Part shown: positions 2,353-19,373 of the stretch, piece by piece
Layout: every line of letters starts with the position of its first letter
Numbering within the stretch: the stretch's first letter is position 1
Origin: a virus
Taxonomy: Duplodnaviria; Caudoviricetes
IMG/VR virus record: IMGVR_UViG_3300016484_000774
Span: 1 to 29,624 of that record
DNA: 29,624 nt
Direction: 5' to 3' (one strand)
Notes under the pieces: model-generated
The model's database searches: none
What the model saw: the letters and a program-made list of their open reading frames with translations, nothing else
Told to the model about the DNA's origin: nothing
Made by a program: the position numbers and the translations under genes

Positions 2353-4154
2353 AAACCATCACCAAGACCTTCTTCTGCCTCTTCGGCGCCATCGGTGGCG
2401 GCGCCCTGGGCTTCAAGGACTCCCGCGTCAGCGTGGCCGGCATGAACGGCCAGTGGGAGTGCCTGGGCAGCGTCGACGTTGACGCCGCCGCCAACCGCGA
2501 CTTCCACCGCCTGGTGGGCAGCCGCGCCACCACGATGGACCTGATGGACCGCGAGCAGTACCTCGCCTTCCACGGCCACCCGCCGCCCGCCGACTGGCGC
2601 GAGGCCACGCCGGCCGACATCTGCGCCGCGGCGCAGCACCGGCGGCCGAACGCCGTGTTCCTGAGCGCGCCCTGCAAGGGCTTCAGCGGCCTGCTCTCCC
2701 AGGCCAAGAGCCTGACCGCGAAGTACCAGGCGCTCAACCGCCTGACGCTGCGCGGCATCTGGCTCACGCTGGAGGCCTGGGCCGACGACCCGCCCGAGCT
2801 GCTGCTCTTCGAGAACGTGCCGCGCCTGGCCACCCGTGGCCGCGTGCTGCTCGACCAGATCAGCGCCATGCTCCGCGCCTACGGCTACGCCGTGGCCGAG
2901 ACCACGCACGACTGCGGCGAGCTGGGCGGCCTGGCGCAGAGCCGCAAGCGCTTCCTGCTGGTGGCACGCCACATCGCCAAGGTGCCCAACCTGCTGTACG
3001 AGCCGCGCCGCCAGCCGCTGCGCGCCGTCGGCGAGGTGCTGGGCCGGATGCCGCTGCCGGGCGACCTGGCCGCCGGCCCGATGCACCGCGTGCCCTCCCT
3101 GGCCTGGAAGACCTGGGTGCGCCTGGCGTTCGTGGAGGCCGGCAGCGACTGGCGCAGCCTGAACCGGCTGGCGGTGCAGGACGGGGCGCTGCGGGACTAC
3201 CTCATCGTGCCGACGATGTTCCGCGGCGGCCTGGGCGTGCGGCATTGGGACGAGGCCGCCGGCGCGGTGGCTGGTGAGACGCTGCCCCTGAACGGCGCCT
3301 TCAGCGTGGCCGACCCGCGCTTCGAGGCCTCCGCCCGCTGGCATGACGGCCAGGCCTACGGCGTGCGCCGCTGGGACGAGACCACCGGCACCGTGGCCGG
3401 CCAGCAGACGCCGGGCCAGGGCGCCTACTCGGTGGCCGACCCGCGCTGCCAGACGGTGAAGCACAACAACTGCTTCCGCGTGGTGCGCTGGGCCGGGCCG
3501 AGCGGCACCGTGACCGGCGGTGGCCACCCGAGCGCCGGCGGCCAGTGCGTGGCCGACCCGCGCCCGAGCGGCGAGCTCTTCGGGAAGTACGCCGTGACGG
3601 ACTGGGCCGACGCCGCCGGCACCGTGATCAGCGGCAGCACCACCGGCCAGGGCGCCTTTGCCGTGGCCGACCCTCGCAGCGGCATGGCCGCCGACCGCCA
3701 GGCCTACCTGACCGGCGGGCACTACGGCGTGGTGCCCTGGAGCCAGCCCAGCGGCGCGGTGAGCGCGGCCGCGTGCCATGACAACGGCCGCTGGAGCGTG
3801 GCCGACCCGCGCCTGCCCGAGGCCGGCGACCACCTGGTGGCCGTGATCCGCGCCGAGGACGGCACCTGGCACCGCCCCTTCACCACGCTGGAGCTCGCCG
3901 CCCTTCAGAGCCTCTTCGACCCCGAAGACCCGGAGGAGGCTGCCGCCTTCGGCCTGGACGGCACCAGCGACCAGGCCTGGCGCGAGCGCATCGGCAACGC
4001 GGTGCCCCGCAAGTCGGCGCGCTACATGGCCGACGAGTTCCTGCGCACCCTGCTGCTGGCCGACGCCGGCGAGACCTTCCAGCTGAGCGCAGCGCCGGTG
4101 TGGGTGCGGCCCGTGGCGGCGGCGCTGATGCTGGGCACGGGAGCGGTGGCATGA
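2349..4154 (+). CDS. DNA (cytosine-5)-methyltransferase, orphan, with repeat-expanded variable region
   Basis: Motif I-like LFGAIGG, catalytic motif IV SAPCKGFS, motif VI ENVPRL, motif VIII QSRKRF and motif X IGNAVP. ATG 2349 lies in an ATGA overlap. Confidence 0.93.
   Translation: MKTITKTFFCLFGAIGGGALGFKDSRVSVAGMNGQWECLGSVDVDAAANRDFHRLVGSRATTMDLMDREQYLAFHGHPPPADWREATPADICAAAQHRRPNAVFLSAPCKGFSGLLSQAKSLTAKYQALNRLTLRGIWLTLEAWADDPPELLLFENVPRLATRGRVLLDQISAMLRAYGYAVAETTHDCGELGGLAQSRKRFLLVARHIAKVPNLLYEPRRQPLRAVGEVLGRMPLPGDLAAGPMHRVPSLAWKTWVRLAFVEAGSDWRSLNRLAVQDGALRDYLIVPTMFRGGLGVRHWDEAAGAVAGETLPLNGAFSVADPRFEASARWHDGQAYGVRRWDETTGTVAGQQTPGQGAYSVADPRCQTVKHNNCFRVVRWAGPSGTVTGGGHPSAGGQCVADPRPSGELFGKYAVTDWADAAGTVISGSTTGQGAFAVADPRSGMAADRQAYLTGGHYGVVPWSQPSGAVSAAACHDNGRWSVADPRLPEAGDHLVAVIRAEDGTWHRPFTTLELAALQSLFDPEDPEEAAAFGLDGTSDQAWRERIGNAVPRKSARYMADEFLRTLLLADAGETFQLSAAPVWVRPVAAALMLGTGAVA
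3234..3812 (+). repeat. five degenerate 38-45 aa repeats inside the methyltransferase, each ending VADPR
   Basis: In-frame GTGGCCGACCC at 3306, 3432, 3549, 3663 and 3798. The unit is approximately V-x-x-W-x-x-x-x-G-(T/A)-V...VADPR. Confidence 0.9.
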
Positions 4155-4744
4155 AGGAACGCCCCATCATTTTCCGCGCCGACAGCGTGCGCGCCATCCT
4201 GGACGGCCGCAAGACGCAGACCCGCCGCCTGGTGAAGGGCGCGCCGCTCGAGTGGATCCAGGTACATGGCTTCGCGCCCGAGTTCGTGGCGCATCCGGAG
4301 AACGACAGCTGCCGCTACGGCAAGACCGGCGACCGCCTTTGGGTGCGCGAGCGCTTCCAGCGCATCGACGGCCAGACCCAGCCCTGGATCGAGACGGACT
4401 ACGAGGCCACCTACAAGCGCGGCGACCGCCTCGGCGACCTGCTGGGCGACAAGAAGCAGTGGCAGCCGGCGATGTTCATGCCGCGCCATGCCAGCCGCAT
4501 CCTGCTGACGATCACCGGCCTGCGGATCGAGCGGCTGCAGGAGATCAGCGAGGCCGACGCACGGGCCGAGGGCGCACCCTGCGTCGACGAGGTGAGCGGC
4601 CGCGAGGTGCTGTTCCCCGATCACGCGAAGTGCGGCACGTTCAAGCTCGGCTTCCAGTGCCTGTGGGAGAGCCATCACGGCCCCGACTCCTGGGCCGAGA
4701 GCCCTTATGTCTGGGTGATCAACTTCGAAAGGACCACGGCATGA
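4151..4744 (+). CDS. ASCH/PUA-like phage protein
   Basis: MKERPIIF...VRAILDGRKTQTRR, GDRLWVRE, MFMPRHASRILL...IERLQEISEADARAEG and W..SPYVWVINF match a common phage family. ATGA overlaps. Confidence 0.85.
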   Translation: MKERPIIFRADSVRAILDGRKTQTRRLVKGAPLEWIQVHGFAPEFVAHPENDSCRYGKTGDRLWVRERFQRIDGQTQPWIETDYEATYKRGDRLGDLLGDKKQWQPAMFMPRHASRILLTITGLRIERLQEISEADARAEGAPCVDEVSGREVLFPDHAKCGTFKLGFQCLWESHHGPDSWAESPYVWVINFERTTA

Positions 4745-11584: not shown

Positions 11585-12678
11585 TGGCTGACCAGGTGGC
11601 AGCGGCCATCCGCCGCGCCAGCCAGGCCGCGCGCAACCAGATGCGCGCGCTGGACGCCGAGGCGGCGGGCGAGCTGGAGCGCATCTACAGCGCCGCGGCC
11701 GAGCAGGTGCGCGGCGCGATCGCGCGCGCCGCCGGCGCCGGCCAGCGGGTGCAGGTGGCGCAGCTGCGCGAGCTGCTGGCCACGATCGAGGCGGTGCTGT
11801 CTGACCTGACCGTCGAGCGCGAAGCGCTGGTGGAGCAGGCCATGCGCCAGGCGGCCGAGCTGGGCGTGCGCCCGCTGACGACCGCCGGCATCGCCGCCAC
11901 CGGCCGCACCGTGGCGCCCGTGGTGGCCGATGGCGCGGCCCTGCAGGTGGTGGACGCGGCGGTGGCCTTCGTCCGCGCCTTCCGGGCGGAGGATGGCCTG
12001 GTGCTGAGCGACCGGCTGTGGCGCCTGGACCGTGGCGCCCGCGAGGCCGTGGGCCGCGCCGTGGAGCAGGCCGTGGTGCGCGGCTGGAGCGCCGACAAGG
12101 CGGCCGCCGAGCTGATCATGCGCGGCCAGCCCGTGCCGGCCGCCACCGCGGCCGCGCAGGCCGGCGCCGAGGTGGGCCAGGTGCTGCGCGCCGCCGACCT
12201 GCTGAAGGCCCCAGGCGGCCCGCAGGATGCCGCGCTGCGGGTGATGCGCACCGAGATCAACCGGGCCCACGGCGAGGCCTACGCCGCCGGCGCCGAGGGC
12301 GCGCCGGGCTTCGTCGGCTTCCGCTTCCTGCTGAGCCCCCGGCACCCCAAGCCCGACATCTGCGACCTGCTGGCCAGCCAGAACCTGCACGGCCTGGGCC
12401 AGGGCGTCTACCCGACCCGCAAGGCCACGCCGTGGCCGGCGCACCCCAACACGCTGAGCTTCATCGTGGCGGTGTTCGAGGACGAGGTGACGCCCGAAGA
12501 CCGCGCCGGCCAGGAGACGCCCAACGAGGCGCTGGCCCGCATGGCGCCCGAGCTGCGCGCCGGCGTGCTGGGCCCGACCAAGGCCACGTACTTCGACCAG
12601 GGCCTGCTGACGCGCGGAATGCTGCGCAGCCGGGTGCGTGACGTCCAGGCGCGGCTGACGCGGCAGGGGCGGATCTGA
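11584..12678 (+). CDS. head morphogenesis/minor capsid protein (Mu gpF / SPP1 gp7-like)
   Basis: RVMRTEINRAH, DICDLL and PAHPNT motifs; follows the portal via a TGATG overlap. Confidence 0.82.
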   Translation: MADQVAAAIRRASQAARNQMRALDAEAAGELERIYSAAAEQVRGAIARAAGAGQRVQVAQLRELLATIEAVLSDLTVEREALVEQAMRQAAELGVRPLTTAGIAATGRTVAPVVADGAALQVVDAAVAFVRAFRAEDGLVLSDRLWRLDRGAREAVGRAVEQAVVRGWSADKAAAELIMRGQPVPAATAAAQAGAEVGQVLRAADLLKAPGGPQDAALRVMRTEINRAHGEAYAAGAEGAPGFVGFRFLLSPRHPKPDICDLLASQNLHGLGQGVYPTRKATPWPAHPNTLSFIVAVFEDEVTPEDRAGQETPNEALARMAPELRAGVLGPTKATYFDQGLLTRGMLRSRVRDVQARLTRQGRI

Positions 12679-12687
12679 GCGCGGCGC

Positions 12688-12716
12688 TTGACAGGGCGAG
12701 CCATAACGACTACATT
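12688..12716 (+). promoter_or_regulatory. near-consensus sigma70 promoter
   Basis: TTGACA (12688-12693), 17-nt spacer, TACATT (12711-12716); intergenic and upstream of three small genes. Confidence 0.85.
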
Positions 12717-12785
12717 ACTGAACATGGGCAGCAGCAACGCAGCCCACCGACGCCCGGCGGCTCCGGGATCTCCGAGGAGATGCAC

Positions 12786-12977
12786 ATGGTCAGCTTCCAG
12801 TACCCCGAAGGCGCCGAGCAATTCGACGCCGCAGCCTTCCACCAGGACGGCACCCTCATCAAGACGGGCCACCGCGAAGAGTGCGAGCAAGCGGCGATCG
12901 ACGCCCGCGGCCTCTACTGCCTGTGGATCGACGGCCACCCGGTCATCAAGGTCGACTTCGAAAACCTCGACGAGTGA
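12786..12977 (+). CDS. small acidic protein (63 aa), candidate anti-defence protein
   Basis: GAGGAG RBS at 12774-12779; 13 D/E versus 4 K/R; first gene after the sigma70 promoter. Confidence 0.75.
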   Translation: MVSFQYPEGAEQFDAAAFHQDGTLIKTGHREECEQAAIDARGLYCLWIDGHPVIKVDFENLDE

Positions 12978-13225
12978 CCGGCAAGCACAACAACTGGCAC
13001 CGCGCCTGGTCGAGAGACCAGGCCGGCCACCTCGTGCACACCAGCGGCCTGCGCGTGCTGGTGCAGCCGGCGGACGATGGCGCCATTGACCTGGAGGCCG
13101 AGGAAGCCAGCCTCGCCATCTTCCAGGCCAAAGAAGGCTCACGCGGCGTGCCGCTGCACGATCTGGCGGCCCGCCTGCAGCGCCTGCTGCGCGAAGCCGC
13201 TGAGTGGCACCAACGGAACCCGTAG
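12974..13225 (+). CDS. small hypothetical protein (83 aa)
   Basis: GTGA overlap; begins MTGKHNNWHRAW...HTSGLRV. Confidence 0.75.
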   Translation: MTGKHNNWHRAWSRDQAGHLVHTSGLRVLVQPADDGAIDLEAEEASLAIFQAKEGSRGVPLHDLAARLQRLLREAAEWHQRNP

Positions 13226-13227
13226 CC

Positions 13228-13419
13228 ATGGCTCGCACGCAGTCCGCAGAGACCAGCCGCGGCGTGGACCTGATCCGCGCCAGGCTGGCCGCCGGCCAGC
13301 CGCCCGAGCTGCGCGCTACGGCCGCCCAGCTCGGCATCGAGGCCATGACGCTCAGCCGCGCCTGCAAGCGCGCCGGCCTGGTGCTGCCTCGCGGACGCCC
13401 TGCTCGCCAGTCGGCCTGA
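13228..13419 (+). CDS. small basic HTH protein (63 aa), Aca-like position
   Basis: LRATAAQLGIEAMTLSRACKRAG HTH pattern followed by a PRGRP motif; last gene of the operon. Confidence 0.78.
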   Translation: MARTQSAETSRGVDLIRARLAAGQPPELRATAAQLGIEAMTLSRACKRAGLVLPRGRPARQSA

Positions 13420-13442
13420 CGCTGCGCCCGTAGCAGGCCGCC

Positions 13443-13606
13443 CGCGCGCCGCCAGGCGCGCGTCGTCCATCTGCCTGGGGCGCGGTTCCCCGCGCCCCTC
13501 CCACTGCGCAGCAGCGGCGTCCGGGCCCTGCCTGCCCCTCCCCGCACCCCACCGACTGAAAGCGGGCCCGCCTCAGGGCTAACCCTAAAGAGGGGAGGCT
13601 GGCCCG
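13443..13606. repeat. three GC-rich inverted repeats
   Basis: CGCGCGCC-gcca-GGCGCGCG (13443-13462); GGGGCGCGG-ttcc-CCGCGCCCC (13477-13498); CGGGCCCGCCTC...GAGGCTGGCCCG (13563-13606, 11/12 match). Confidence 0.7.
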
Positions 13607-13647
13607 ATAGTTTTTCCCAAAAACCCGGCACAGGCAGCGCCCACAAC

Positions 13648-14011
13648 CCGTGGAACCGTGGATACCCCACGCCTAACTCATTGATTTACTAAGCGGCGCG
13701 GCCTGGAAATACGCAGTGGCTTTCCACGGGTCGGGTTTCTTTTTCCACGGGTCGGGTTTATTTCTCCACATCGGCGGTTTTCCAGCCCGCGCCGTCAATC
13801 ACTACATTTTTCTCTCATTTACCTAGGAGAGAGAGAGGAAAGAGCAGCGAAATCGAGCGAAACCGCCCTCCACGGGTTGAGAAGAATGTAAGCAACAGTA
13901 ACCACGGGTCCGCACTGCGTTCCACGGGTTTTCCGTGGACGACGAATCGCGCTAAGTCGCTGTCAGGGCGAGATATTTCCGGTTTGCGTTGCCATATCCA
14001 CGGATCCACGG
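13648..14011. repeat. putative replication origin: ten CCACGG iteron-like motifs bounded by 17-bp inverted repeats
   Basis: CCACGG/CCGTGG at 13648, 13656, 13724, 13745, 13870, 13902, 13922, 13933, 13998 and 14006. There is a 21-bp tandem unit TTTCCACGGGTCGGGTTT and an AT-rich/polypurine centre. The region is non-coding. Confidence 0.7.
13674..13686 (-). promoter_or_regulatory. IHF-binding consensus
   Basis: The reverse complement AATCAATGAGTTA is an exact match to WATCAANNNNTTR. Confidence 0.65.
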
Positions 14012-14016
14012 AGAAA

Positions 14017-15078
14017 ATGCCCCTACCCCCCTGCGATGGCGCCCTTCCTGACGTGACGACGACCCCCACCGACCAGGCCGACCGCGAGCTGATCGACGGC
14101 TACCTTGCCCACCTCGGCGCCGCCCGTGGGCGCCGGCCGCGCACGCTGGAGGCCTACCGCATGGCCCTCGAGCGGCTGCGCACCTACCTGCAGGGCAAGC
14201 CGCTGCAGCTGGCTGACCAGGCCGAGCTGGAGGGCTTCGCCGGCCTGTGGCTGCACAAGCAAGGCGTGGTGGCCCGCAGCCGCAAGCCCTACATCAGCGC
14301 CACGCGCGGCTTCTTCGCCTGGCTGCAGCGCACCGGCCGTGTGGCCGCCAACCCGGCGCTGCAGCTGCAGCACCCGAAGGCCGGCAGCCCGCTGCCGCGC
14401 GCCATGAGCCTGGCCAGCGCCGAGCGGCTGATGTGGGCGCCCGACCTGAACACGTTCGTGGGCCTGCGTGACGCGGCCATGCTCTCCCTGCTGATGTGCG
14501 GCCTGCGCGTCGGCGGCCTGGTGAGCCTCAACGAGGGCGACCTGCGCAATGAGGAGATCGACGGCAAGCCGCGGCTGGTGATCCGCGTCACCGAAAAAGG
14601 CGACAAGGAGCGCATGCTGCCTCTGCCGCGCGAGGCGGAGATGCTGCTGCGGATCTACCTCGATCACGAGGGCCTCAAGGGCGTGGACCGCACCATCCAG
14701 GATGCGCGTGGCCACGCCGACAAGGTGCTGTTCGTCAACGCGCGCAACACCCACGTGTCAGCCGCGGAGTACTGCGGCGAGGCGACCCGGATGCGCCGCT
14801 CGAGCGTGTGGAAGATGGTCCAGCGCTACGGCGAGCGGGCCCGAATCCCATCGTCCGAGCTGCACCCGCACGCCATGCGGCATCTGTTCGGCGTCGAGTT
14901 CGCCGAGGACGGCGTGGACACCATCACCCGCCAGAAGCTCATGGGTCACAGCGACCCGAAGTCGACCGAGATCTACAGCGCGATGAGCATGCGCCGCCTG
15001 GCCAAGGTGGTGGATGCCTCGGCACCGCTGGGCAAGATCAAGAGCCCGGTCTCCGAAGTCCTGCGCCGGCTGGGCTGA
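14017..15078 (+). CDS. tyrosine recombinase (XerC/D-like, no N-terminal arm-binding domain)
   Basis: Full catalytic set: CGLRV (R), TEKGDKER (K), HPHAMRH (HxxR), LMGHS (H), TEIY (Y). The start is ATG 14017 or GTG 14053. Confidence 0.93.
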   Translation: MPLPPCDGALPDVTTTPTDQADRELIDGYLAHLGAARGRRPRTLEAYRMALERLRTYLQGKPLQLADQAELEGFAGLWLHKQGVVARSRKPYISATRGFFAWLQRTGRVAANPALQLQHPKAGSPLPRAMSLASAERLMWAPDLNTFVGLRDAAMLSLLMCGLRVGGLVSLNEGDLRNEEIDGKPRLVIRVTEKGDKERMLPLPREAEMLLRIYLDHEGLKGVDRTIQDARGHADKVLFVNARNTHVSAAEYCGEATRMRRSSVWKMVQRYGERARIPSSELHPHAMRHLFGVEFAEDGVDTITRQKLMGHSDPKSTEIYSAMSMRRLAKVVDASAPLGKIKSPVSEVLRRLG

Positions 15079-17551: not shown

Positions 17552-17639
17552 GCACCGGCCGCCCGTAGGGCTGCAAATGGCAGCCTGAAACGCTTTCACT
17601 CCCTGGCTAGCTGAGGCAGTACGCCTCGAGGAGCGAGTG

Positions 17640-19373
17640 ATGGCGAAAGTGTGGGTGGAGAACAAATCAAGCCAGGCGCAAGTCATTGGCGGCGAGCTGG
17701 TGGCGCCTGGTGAAGGCGCCTTCGTCGAGAACGGAGGCCCAGCCCCACGACGGCCGTCGTACTTCGTTCTTAGCGAGGGTCTGTCGCTGGCGTTGGCGGC
17801 TCAATTCAAGGTCACTCCTCCGACACGTGACAGCGACGGCATTGACATCGCCATCTCCATGTGTGTGGCTGCTGGTGGCGGCACGGTGGTGTATGAGCAG
17901 GCGCGCTACTCAGTCACGCGCAAGCACACGATGGCCTCTGGCGTGAGTCACGTTGGCGTGCCTTTGCGCATGACATTCGGAGCGTTGGACAACGTGCCGG
18001 ATTTCTGGACGATTCCGGCAAGCGGAGCGCCAGGCACCATTCTCGATGTGGCGGCAGGCGTGACGGCGTTCGCTTGGAATGAAGTCGATTTGGGCGTCGT
18101 GCAGTCTCCGCTCATGGCCTATGCGCTGACGCAGTGCCACCTGTACGGCCTGGCCTTCAATGGTGGCCAGCGTGCAATCAAGATCGGCGCGACAAATGCG
18201 ATGGGTTGCGAGGACGGCTCGATCGACATGATCTATGCCTACAACCAAACCTGCGACGACGGCGGCTATGCAATCGACATCCTGAACACCCAGTTTTTCA
18301 AGACCGGCCGCATTCGTGTCACCAACGACCAGGTGCAGGCTATTGGCGGCAACTACCGCTTCGGGTGCACGCTGCCGCAGGCTGTGCTTCTGACCGGTGA
18401 CTCGGACATTGATACGGTCTTCTCGCGCTGCACCAGTAGGACGCGAAAAGGCGTGGTGCTGGAGGCGTCCAACCCTCTCACCGCATTGCTGAACAACGTC
18501 AAGATCAACCGCACACATGCATCGCGGTATACGACCTCGACGCCCGATACGGTCAACGTCACGGCCACCAGCGGTAACGCCAACTTCGGCGTGCCCAACG
18601 CTACGGAGTTCCAGCTTTGCCAGATCGGCATGCCGCTGCGGTTCCAGTCCACTGCGCCAGCGGGCTTCGACGCCAACATCACGTACTTCGTTGTCGCACG
18701 AAGCACAGGTAGCCAGACGATCCAGCTTGCCGAGGCGGACTATGCAGCGGCACTTACGCCGACGGCCAGCGCCAGCTATGCCATGTACTGCGGAGGCTTC
18801 CCGACCTTCATCGCTCGTGGCGGCGAGACCGGCAGCGCGGTGAAGAACTGCGACTTCGGAGCACTGGCGCTGGAGGTCACAGGCAACATCGGCATGATGA
18901 TGCTCTCGAAGGTACGCAACTCCGTGGTGTTGATGGAGAACCCGTCAGCAAGCTTCACGGGGACCGGAATCATTGCGCGAGACGCTGAGACTGGCCTCAG
19001 CTACGGTGGCAGCGATCTCATCGGATTTGATGAGTCTGGGCTCATCGGCGGTCTGATGGGCGTCACGAACCTCGCCGCCGGTGACTATCAGCACACCGGC
19101 GGAAACATCACTCTGACGTCTGCGTGGAATGGCCGGCGCGTCCGCTACAGCGGCACCGCCGACATCACGATCACGATCCCGCGAAAGCTGCCTCCTGGCT
19201 TCGAGCTTGAGCTTGTGACGACTGGCGCGACTGGGATCGTCACGTTCTCTGCCGCCGCTGGCTTGGGTCTTTGGTCAAAAGCTGGCCTGCGCACCAATGG
19301 ACAGTACGCAAAGGTGAAGCTCTCCAAGATCTCGACCGTCGGCTACCACCTGAGCGGAGACACCCAGGTCTGA
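17640..19373 (+). CDS. virion spike/fibre-like protein with pectate-lyase-like beta-helix start (possible head fibre)
   Basis: GAGGAG RBS. DSDGIDIAISMCVAAGGGTVVYEQARY resembles a beta-helix cap. The protein is Gly/Thr/Asn-rich and ends TITIP...GF...GIVTF...GQYA...LSGD. GC is visibly lower than in flanking genes. Confidence 0.65.
   Translation: MAKVWVENKSSQAQVIGGELVAPGEGAFVENGGPAPRRPSYFVLSEGLSLALAAQFKVTPPTRDSDGIDIAISMCVAAGGGTVVYEQARYSVTRKHTMASGVSHVGVPLRMTFGALDNVPDFWTIPASGAPGTILDVAAGVTAFAWNEVDLGVVQSPLMAYALTQCHLYGLAFNGGQRAIKIGATNAMGCEDGSIDMIYAYNQTCDDGGYAIDILNTQFFKTGRIRVTNDQVQAIGGNYRFGCTLPQAVLLTGDSDIDTVFSRCTSRTRKGVVLEASNPLTALLNNVKINRTHASRYTTSTPDTVNVTATSGNANFGVPNATEFQLCQIGMPLRFQSTAPAGFDANITYFVVARSTGSQTIQLAEADYAAALTPTASASYAMYCGGFPTFIARGGETGSAVKNCDFGALALEVTGNIGMMMLSKVRNSVVLMENPSASFTGTGIIARDAETGLSYGGSDLIGFDESGLIGGLMGVTNLAAGDYQHTGGNITLTSAWNGRRVRYSGTADITITIPRKLPPGFELELVTTGATGIVTFSAAAGLGLWSKAGLRTNGQYAKVKLSKISTVGYHLSGDTQV

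Follow-up and report, generated by a model that had tools for sequence, protein, structure and literature searches.

What is the small gene cluster that follows the head-morphogenesis gene in the caudoviral record IMGVR_UViG_3300016484_000774 (Duplodnaviria; Caudoviricetes), and what do its genes do there? The window, i.e. the whole stretch of 29,624 nucleotides that we analysed, carries at this place three short open reading frames, here called ORF1, ORF2 and ORF3, headed by a promoter and a leader. An earlier note on this DNA took them for a candidate anti-CRISPR or anti-defence operon in which ORF1 and ORF2 are both inhibitors and ORF3 is the sole repressor. The region is a real, inserted operon of the aca style, and an anti-CRISPR activity of the cassette is unsupported. 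What appears to be new, as judged from comparison of sequences, is a covarying leader that is absent from Rfam and tied to the unnamed ORF2 protein family.

The gene order of this temperate phage reads primase, DNA methylase, terminase, portal, head-morphogenesis gene, cassette, a non-coding stretch, tyrosine recombinase, serine recombinase and, further on, the genes for protease/capsid and tail. The gene directly 5' of the cassette is a head-morphogenesis gene, as had been stated (phrog_1657, E 1e-34), and it is ended by the three-gene cassette, as its stop codon lies in the insert. The latter spans 12676-13437 on the plus strand (about 755-761 bp); a contig from another study (run X2) is its empty form, with 12676 joined straight to 13438 in an otherwise nearly identical sequence, and no target-site duplication is seen at the 12676/13437 junctions. 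Run X1 spans the cassette with zero differences, and may itself be the source of the window. Of the 80 loci fetched by the head gene, nine have the tyrosine recombinase next, and in all nine of these relatives with the same gene order the slot lacks the three cassette genes. An operon with its own promoter, part of the reading in the earlier note, is supported, and the operon is an insert. More distant relatives bear varied small genes in the same slot, including an operon ending in a KorA/TrfB gene in locus L012. This operon (L012:6130-8105) comprises a short leader variant, cargo genes and the terminal KorA/TrfB gene with no ORF2, and its first cargo gene resembles cargo of L107.

In the Mu-like Pseudomonas phages JBD30 and D3112, the acr locus is an accessory operon placed after a head-morphogenesis gene, and in this respect the cassette is similar. 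The proposed analogy with Mu-like phages does not, however, extend to the rest of the genome: no transposase was found among the 37 window ORFs scanned (in a record that may be incomplete), recombinases of the tyrosine and serine types are present along with a primase, and the protease/capsid gene begins 6 kb after the cassette, with the tyrosine and then the serine recombinase in between. Three other features of this part of the window deserve mention. A GC-rich inverted repeat without a T run lies immediately outside the right end of the insert (13443-13462) and may end the transcript; a terminator scan gave no plus-strand site. The lower-GC non-coding stretch before the tyrosine recombinase (13620-14030) has many TCCAC(G/A)GG / CC(C/T)GTGGA sites, which occur in either orientation, and a purine/pyrimidine tract at its centre, a layout preserved in the nine same-order relatives; it is possibly a recombination, packaging or replication site. 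A 578-aa ORF in AT-richer DNA between the serine recombinase and the protease/capsid gene (17637-19373), with weak C-terminal PHROG matches, is likely further cargo.

The cassette is compact, ORF1 (12786-12977) and ORF2 (12974-13225) overlapping by 4 nt and ORF2 and ORF3 (13228-13419) being separated by 2 nt, all on the plus strand. Searches of Pfam, PHROGs, NCBIfam and PADLOC gave no match to any of the three proteins at the chosen thresholds. The sigma-70-type promoter, TTGACA-N17-TACATT, is indeed present at 12688-12716 on the plus strand, with 10/12 consensus matches; it is one of two such sites in 3 kb, the mean for shuffled sequences being 0.1 sites. Its TACATT box tracks the ORF3 family, occurring in 12/19 ORF3 loci versus 0/32 ORF2 loci with other regulators. 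In nine of ten distinct ORF3-family promoters this box forms half of an inverted repeat with the pattern TAATGTnnGC-N16-GCnnACATTA (fixed 16-nt gap, 6-8/10 matches), and we infer that the repeat is the ORF3 operator. In the window this predicted operator would be halved, with the -10 arm present (12708-12717, plus strand) and the best match to the upstream arm reaching 4/10; with its upstream half absent, it is doubtful whether ORF3 represses its own promoter in this copy. Elsewhere in the window the hexamers TACATT/AATGTA occur only at 13803 and 13885, in the downstream non-coding stretch, where they probably reflect chance in AT-rich DNA and could represent ORF3 half-sites.

ORF3 is the terminal gene of the cassette and encodes a basic 63-aa protein (4 D/E, 11 K/R) with a C-terminal RGRP tail, belonging to a small unnamed family. 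The helix-turn-helix (HTH) assigned to it by the earlier note is likely, the Pfam matches themselves being weak (GntR at E=0.025; HTH_8 at E=0.009 for the closest homologue). At a threshold of E ≤0.001, a profile search added 21 proteins, of which roughly half are small relatives that fit closely, and in 19 metagenome loci a member of the family is the last gene behind differing small ORFs wherever upstream DNA is present. Homologues of ORF3 had been expected to stand behind variable small ORFs that include known Acrs; they do occupy this position, and share the promoter box and the inverted repeat, but no known Acr was recognised among the neighbouring genes scanned. Neither the Aca2/YdiL (PF08965) nor the KorA/TrfB (PF16509, Aca4-type) model matched ORF3, nor does the protein group with any of 24 downstream regulators of this kind.

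Between the promoter and ORF1 lies the leader, previously described as two hairpins. Both are there, at 12725-12746 (hairpin 1, TGGGC..GCCCA) and 12753-12767 (hairpin 2, CCCGG..CCGGG), and a third hairpin, over the Shine-Dalgarno (SD) sequence GGAG (12768-12781), had been missed; all three are on the plus strand. Taken alone, the window leader folds no better than shuffled sequences (z -0.09), so the support for its structure comes from relatives. In 33 aligned leaders with a fixed position in the 5' UTR, 89% of cells pair (shuffles, 76%; slid controls, 31-51%) and 84 cells show two-sided compensatory change (shuffles, 31.8; slid controls, 15-28), the comparison with slid controls being biased toward structure because the structure was drawn from these same sequences. 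Hairpin 1, with 78% of cells paired and two-sided change in 6/7 pairs, sits at the inferred 5' end of the mRNA, and hairpins like it are also found at the head of ORF3-family operons that lack ORF2. The part linked to ORF2 is a core (12747-12767, plus strand) composed of an invariant CCGAC and hairpin 2 with its CGGNN loop; the helix is 95% paired, with two-sided change at three of its six pairs, in 9-15 of the 33 sequences. Hairpin 3 is 92% paired with little covariation. RNAalifold alone recovers hairpins 2 and 3 and not hairpin 1, and G-U pairs present in the leader stem point to RNA as the working form. The compensatory changes at a fixed 5'-UTR position argue for the leader being a structured cis-regulatory RNA. 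A search of Rfam with the window and 18 related loci returned zero matches at the gathering score.

The CCG before hairpin 2 may pair with the CGG of the hairpin loop, which would give an H-type pseudoknot. These positions are invariant (33/33, 33/33 and 32/33) and so leave no covariation to read; when CCG and CGG were left free in a scan, the loop read CGG in 15 of 16 leaders and AGG in one. The predicted probability that the SD sequence is unpaired is 0.22 in the window, and its median is 0.26 in 32 leaders versus 0.51 in eight ORF3-family leaders (p 0.005, a value that is optimistic because the sequences are related). Hairpin 2 has a predicted probability of 0.33 in the window, where it is not dominant, and exceeds 0.5 in 22 of the 32 leaders.

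The distribution of the leader largely coincides with that of ORF2. The leader model R1 has a match upstream and on the same strand in 42/42 ORF2 loci (35 viral and 7 genomic, 28 of the 42 being in the training set of the model), in 0/19 ORF3 loci and in 0/7 ORF1 loci. The score is at least 44 bits in 40 of the 42; the weak matches are those in L101 (28 bits) and L109 (31 bits, 2.7 kb away), and the distinct untrained cases are L124 (71 bits), L130 (60), L113 (45) and the same L109 and L101. Among the 80 head-gene loci a significant match was found in one (L012). Scanning for the motif first gave 97 viral pattern matches, of which 20 stand in a leader context (assigned by us from promoter score and start codon), all 20 with ORF2, in one case as a fragment of 13 residues where the locus ends; the other 77 are without ORF2. 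Most of these matches are in contigs already found through ORF2, the new ones being 3/20 loci and the genome G142. A second scan, with CCG and CGG free, found leaders in 16 of 38 distinct contexts, again all 16 with ORF2. Finally, blind samples of 151 and 131 genomes contained matches above 44 bits in three genomes and one genome, respectively, each beside ORF2; two of these are sample centres, one is apparently the genome of the training locus L127, and G142 is new.

When the window and 40 loci were dereplicated at 90%, with L101 and L109 set aside, CCGAC-x-CC proved invariant in 32/32 loci, the ORF2 proteins of which share a median identity of 45%, and the stem varies in 17 ways. Variation at the changeable leader positions shows no correlation with the similarity among ORF2 proteins (Mantel r -0.05, p 0.71). 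The 38 cargo proteins encoded between leader and ORF2 fall into 34 families, and the 25 terminal regulators (24 hand-picked downstream proteins plus ORF3) into nine. Two co-occurrence patterns are nested in each other, with the promoter box and the terminal regulator outside, the leader core and ORF2 inside and the cargo in the middle; by sequence comparison, the window itself seems to combine a promoter of the ORF3 type with a leader of the ORF2 type. Additional leader copies head neighbouring operons in L105, L107, L127 and other loci. Tandem operons with near-identical copies of promoter and leader are seen in L107 (three, 1616-2911) and L105 (two, 3728-4598).

We give about an even chance to the following interpretation: the inserted operon combines a swappable cargo gene, ORF1, with two likely regulators, ORF3 acting on DNA and ORF2 acting on the leader RNA so as to shut off translation. 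The promoter would fire on phage entry, the weak SD hairpin would admit the first ribosomes, and ORF1, ORF2 and ORF3 would be made as a coupled burst. ORF2 would then bind the element formed by CCGAC and hairpin 2 and lock the SD hairpin, acting likewise on sister operons with the same leader, and ORF3 would bind its operator at the promoter, each regulator thus carrying its own site. Since the leader travels with ORF2 in dozens of other mobile elements while the other genes change, ORF2 is likely a new RNA-binding brake on translation, and not the anti-CRISPR protein first suspected. Counting against this interpretation are the near-neutral charge of ORF2 and its failure to match a known RNA-binding fold, the low predicted probability of hairpin 2 in the window, the lack of correlation between leader variation and ORF2 similarity, and the cases, given below, of a leader without ORF2 or of ORF2 relatives without a leader. 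The more far-reaching proposition that ORF2 represents a new small RNA-binding family of unrecognised fold, which reads a pseudoknot-capable leader and makes up a portable translational switch independent of the Aca-like DNA regulator, is tentative, and we hold it to be somewhat short of an even bet.

The same pattern might come from linkage only, an explanation that we consider rather unlikely. Leader and ORF2 would then be conserved recombination flanks for cargo swapping; the leader would serve expression or stability in a general way, being recognised by the ribosome or by some factor of the host, and ORF2 would be widely useful cargo, for instance a defence inhibitor. The two do bracket a variable slot, 186-1179 nt apart, in which the cargo with names includes LPD29, RadC-like JAB and DUF932 proteins. 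Moreover, each may occur without the other: L012 and L282 contain operons that begin with a shorter leader, which keeps the core and lacks the SD hairpin, and in their genomes (that of L012 rated complete) no ORF2 match was found, and five distant ORF2 relatives (three chromosomal, two plasmid) are without a leader. However, the promoter and the terminal regulator, just outside the proposed flanks, change freely; the core is invariant even where the identity between ORF2 proteins falls to about 20-45%; operons of the ORF3 family manage without this core; and no full-length leader was found in a record without ORF2, either in the motif scans or in the blind genome samples. As to the distant relatives themselves, those on plasmids (L359:2483-2722 and L360:2477-2719) have an NH(P/S)NR start and a small gene after them, the same start being found also in some HTH proteins (P0084, P0087, L037 and L060), and those in L289, L290 and L357 are lone genes among housekeeping-like genes, possibly domesticated.

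ORF2 is an 83-aa protein with a GTG start, from an unnamed family (MTGKHxNW...) with 59 homologues; the named loci are in betaproteobacteria, e.g. Pelomonas, Caldimonas, Polaromonas and Hydrogenophaga. Its predicted structure (pLDDT 88) has three or four strands followed by two helices and gave no significant fold match, known RNA-binding folds included. In most loci ORF2 overlaps or abuts a small DNA-binding gene: among 22 distinct downstream genes, 13 have an HTH/RHH-type Pfam match (E ≤0.05; six above the cut-off), two encode IS1595 transposases, one a DUF4160 protein, and six are without a useful match. The IS1595-family transposase genes (L102:811-1335 and L112:1499-2422) stand directly after ORF2, in the position of the regulator.

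ORF1, also 63 aa long, is the only clear cargo gene of the cassette, and its acidic composition (13 D/E, 4 K/R) was reported correctly, as were the lengths of all three proteins. Its model (pLDDT 81) suggests an alpha/beta protein and has no significant match in PDB, and no family match was obtained either. Of its 13 homologues (68-82% identity; seven viral loci), one is immediately followed by a gene of the Aca2/YdiL family (60.4 bits against a Pfam cut-off of 23.8). Two others, which represent one cassette, have a promoter on one side and a small HTH-like gene on the other, and the remaining four are without an adjoining regulator. From this context ORF1 is likely a defence inhibitor.

The original view, which sees an anti-CRISPR or anti-restriction protein in each of ORF1 and ORF2 and the only repressor in ORF3, draws on the general architecture, which fits acr-aca operons as presented in the available part of Shehreen et al. 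2022 (PMC9410906), and on the regulators, as ORF2 homologues precede XRE-type and KorA/TrfB-type genes (the Aca4 domain in the same source) and ORF1, besides being acidic, has the mentioned homologue before an Aca2/YdiL gene. We regard this view as improbable. No known Acr family was recognised in ORF1-3 with Pfam, PHROGs, NCBIfam, PADLOC and PDB, as far as these libraries cover Acr families, in line with the earlier note, or among the neighbours of homologues (58 and 60 proteins scanned). ORF2 is not acidic, having 11 D/E and 10 K/R and hence a near-neutral charge, and only six of the 38 cargo proteins are net acidic. Contrary to the role of a variable inhibitor, ORF2 stays the same from one of these operons to the next and is coupled to the leader. 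As for the supposed sole repressor, its predicted operator has only one of its halves in the window.

Even less probable is an addiction or exclusion module with ORF2 as a toxin restrained by the downstream regulator (a HigBA-like order) or by the leader RNA (as in type III systems, the antitoxins of which are pseudoknotted RNAs): the adjoining DNA-binding genes and the possible pseudoknot of the leader would suit it, but the downstream partners come from nine families, none of them a fixed antitoxin, and are in some loci a transposase, DUF4160 or an unrelated gene, no known toxin domain, family or fold was matched, and neither tandem RNA repeats nor a terminator were found between leader and genes.

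Autogenous translational operators are known from the leaders of T4 gene 32 and ribosomal protein S15. As in those cases, one of the operon's own products would recognise a folded leader, possibly with a pseudoknot, close to the ribosome-binding site; unlike there, the pseudoknot is putative, the regulated genes are swappable cargo, and no similarity in sequence or fold was found. With acr-aca operons (Aca1-Aca14; PMC9410906 and PMC13551039, as far as accessible) the cassette and its relatives share an own promoter, variable small genes, a terminal small DNA-binding gene, an inverted repeat in the core promoter (in the ORF3 family), co-regulated operons nearby and LPD29 among the cargo. They differ in that no known acr is present here or in the related loci examined, in that ORF3 fits no Aca family tested (Aca2/YdiL, KorA/TrfB), and in the second conserved gene, ORF2, paired with a 5' UTR. 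The accessible text of Shehreen et al. gives an inverted-repeat rule for aca operons and lists KORA for Aca4, and that of Feussner et al. 2026 (PMC13551039) describes RNA motifs tied to single Aca families, control of multiple operons and LPD29 cargo in aca4 operons.

The closest parallels for the leader are the Aca2 RNA motif and the Aca1 5'-UTR hairpin described in the same text: they, too, are covarying 5'-UTR hairpins directly after the start site with predicted control of translation, and hairpin 1 has the position and size of the Aca1 motif. Aca2 represses translation through 5'-UTR hairpins (as summarised in PMC13551039), which is a precedent for the preferred interpretation. There a single HTH protein reads both DNA and RNA, whereas the RNA core described here spans nine regulator families and follows a separate non-HTH protein; no such protein paired with a leader is described in the accessible portion of PMC13551039, from the published clusters of which our leader, as judged by the text, is probably distinct. 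Leader-type motifs need not be switches, as according to that portion Aca1 binds its hairpin without translational silencing and no binding was obtained for the Aca10 and Aca12 motifs. Six supplement files of PMC10690425 gave no match, and no description of ORF2 or the leader was found in the literature searched.

If the preferred interpretation is true, a separate protein-RNA pair nested in exchangeable promoter-regulator pairs would constitute a new layer of control, in contrast to known aca operons, which use one protein for control at the level of DNA and, in Aca2, RNA. It would also be a small RNA-protein switch that lends itself to simple tests. For screening purposes, ORF2 should not be treated as an Acr candidate by default, and the genes between leader and ORF2 form a new pool for guilt-by-association searches. 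Should leader and ORF2 truly be a portable switch, they would provide a new marker for anti-defence genes, with at least 34 cargo families standing behind it.
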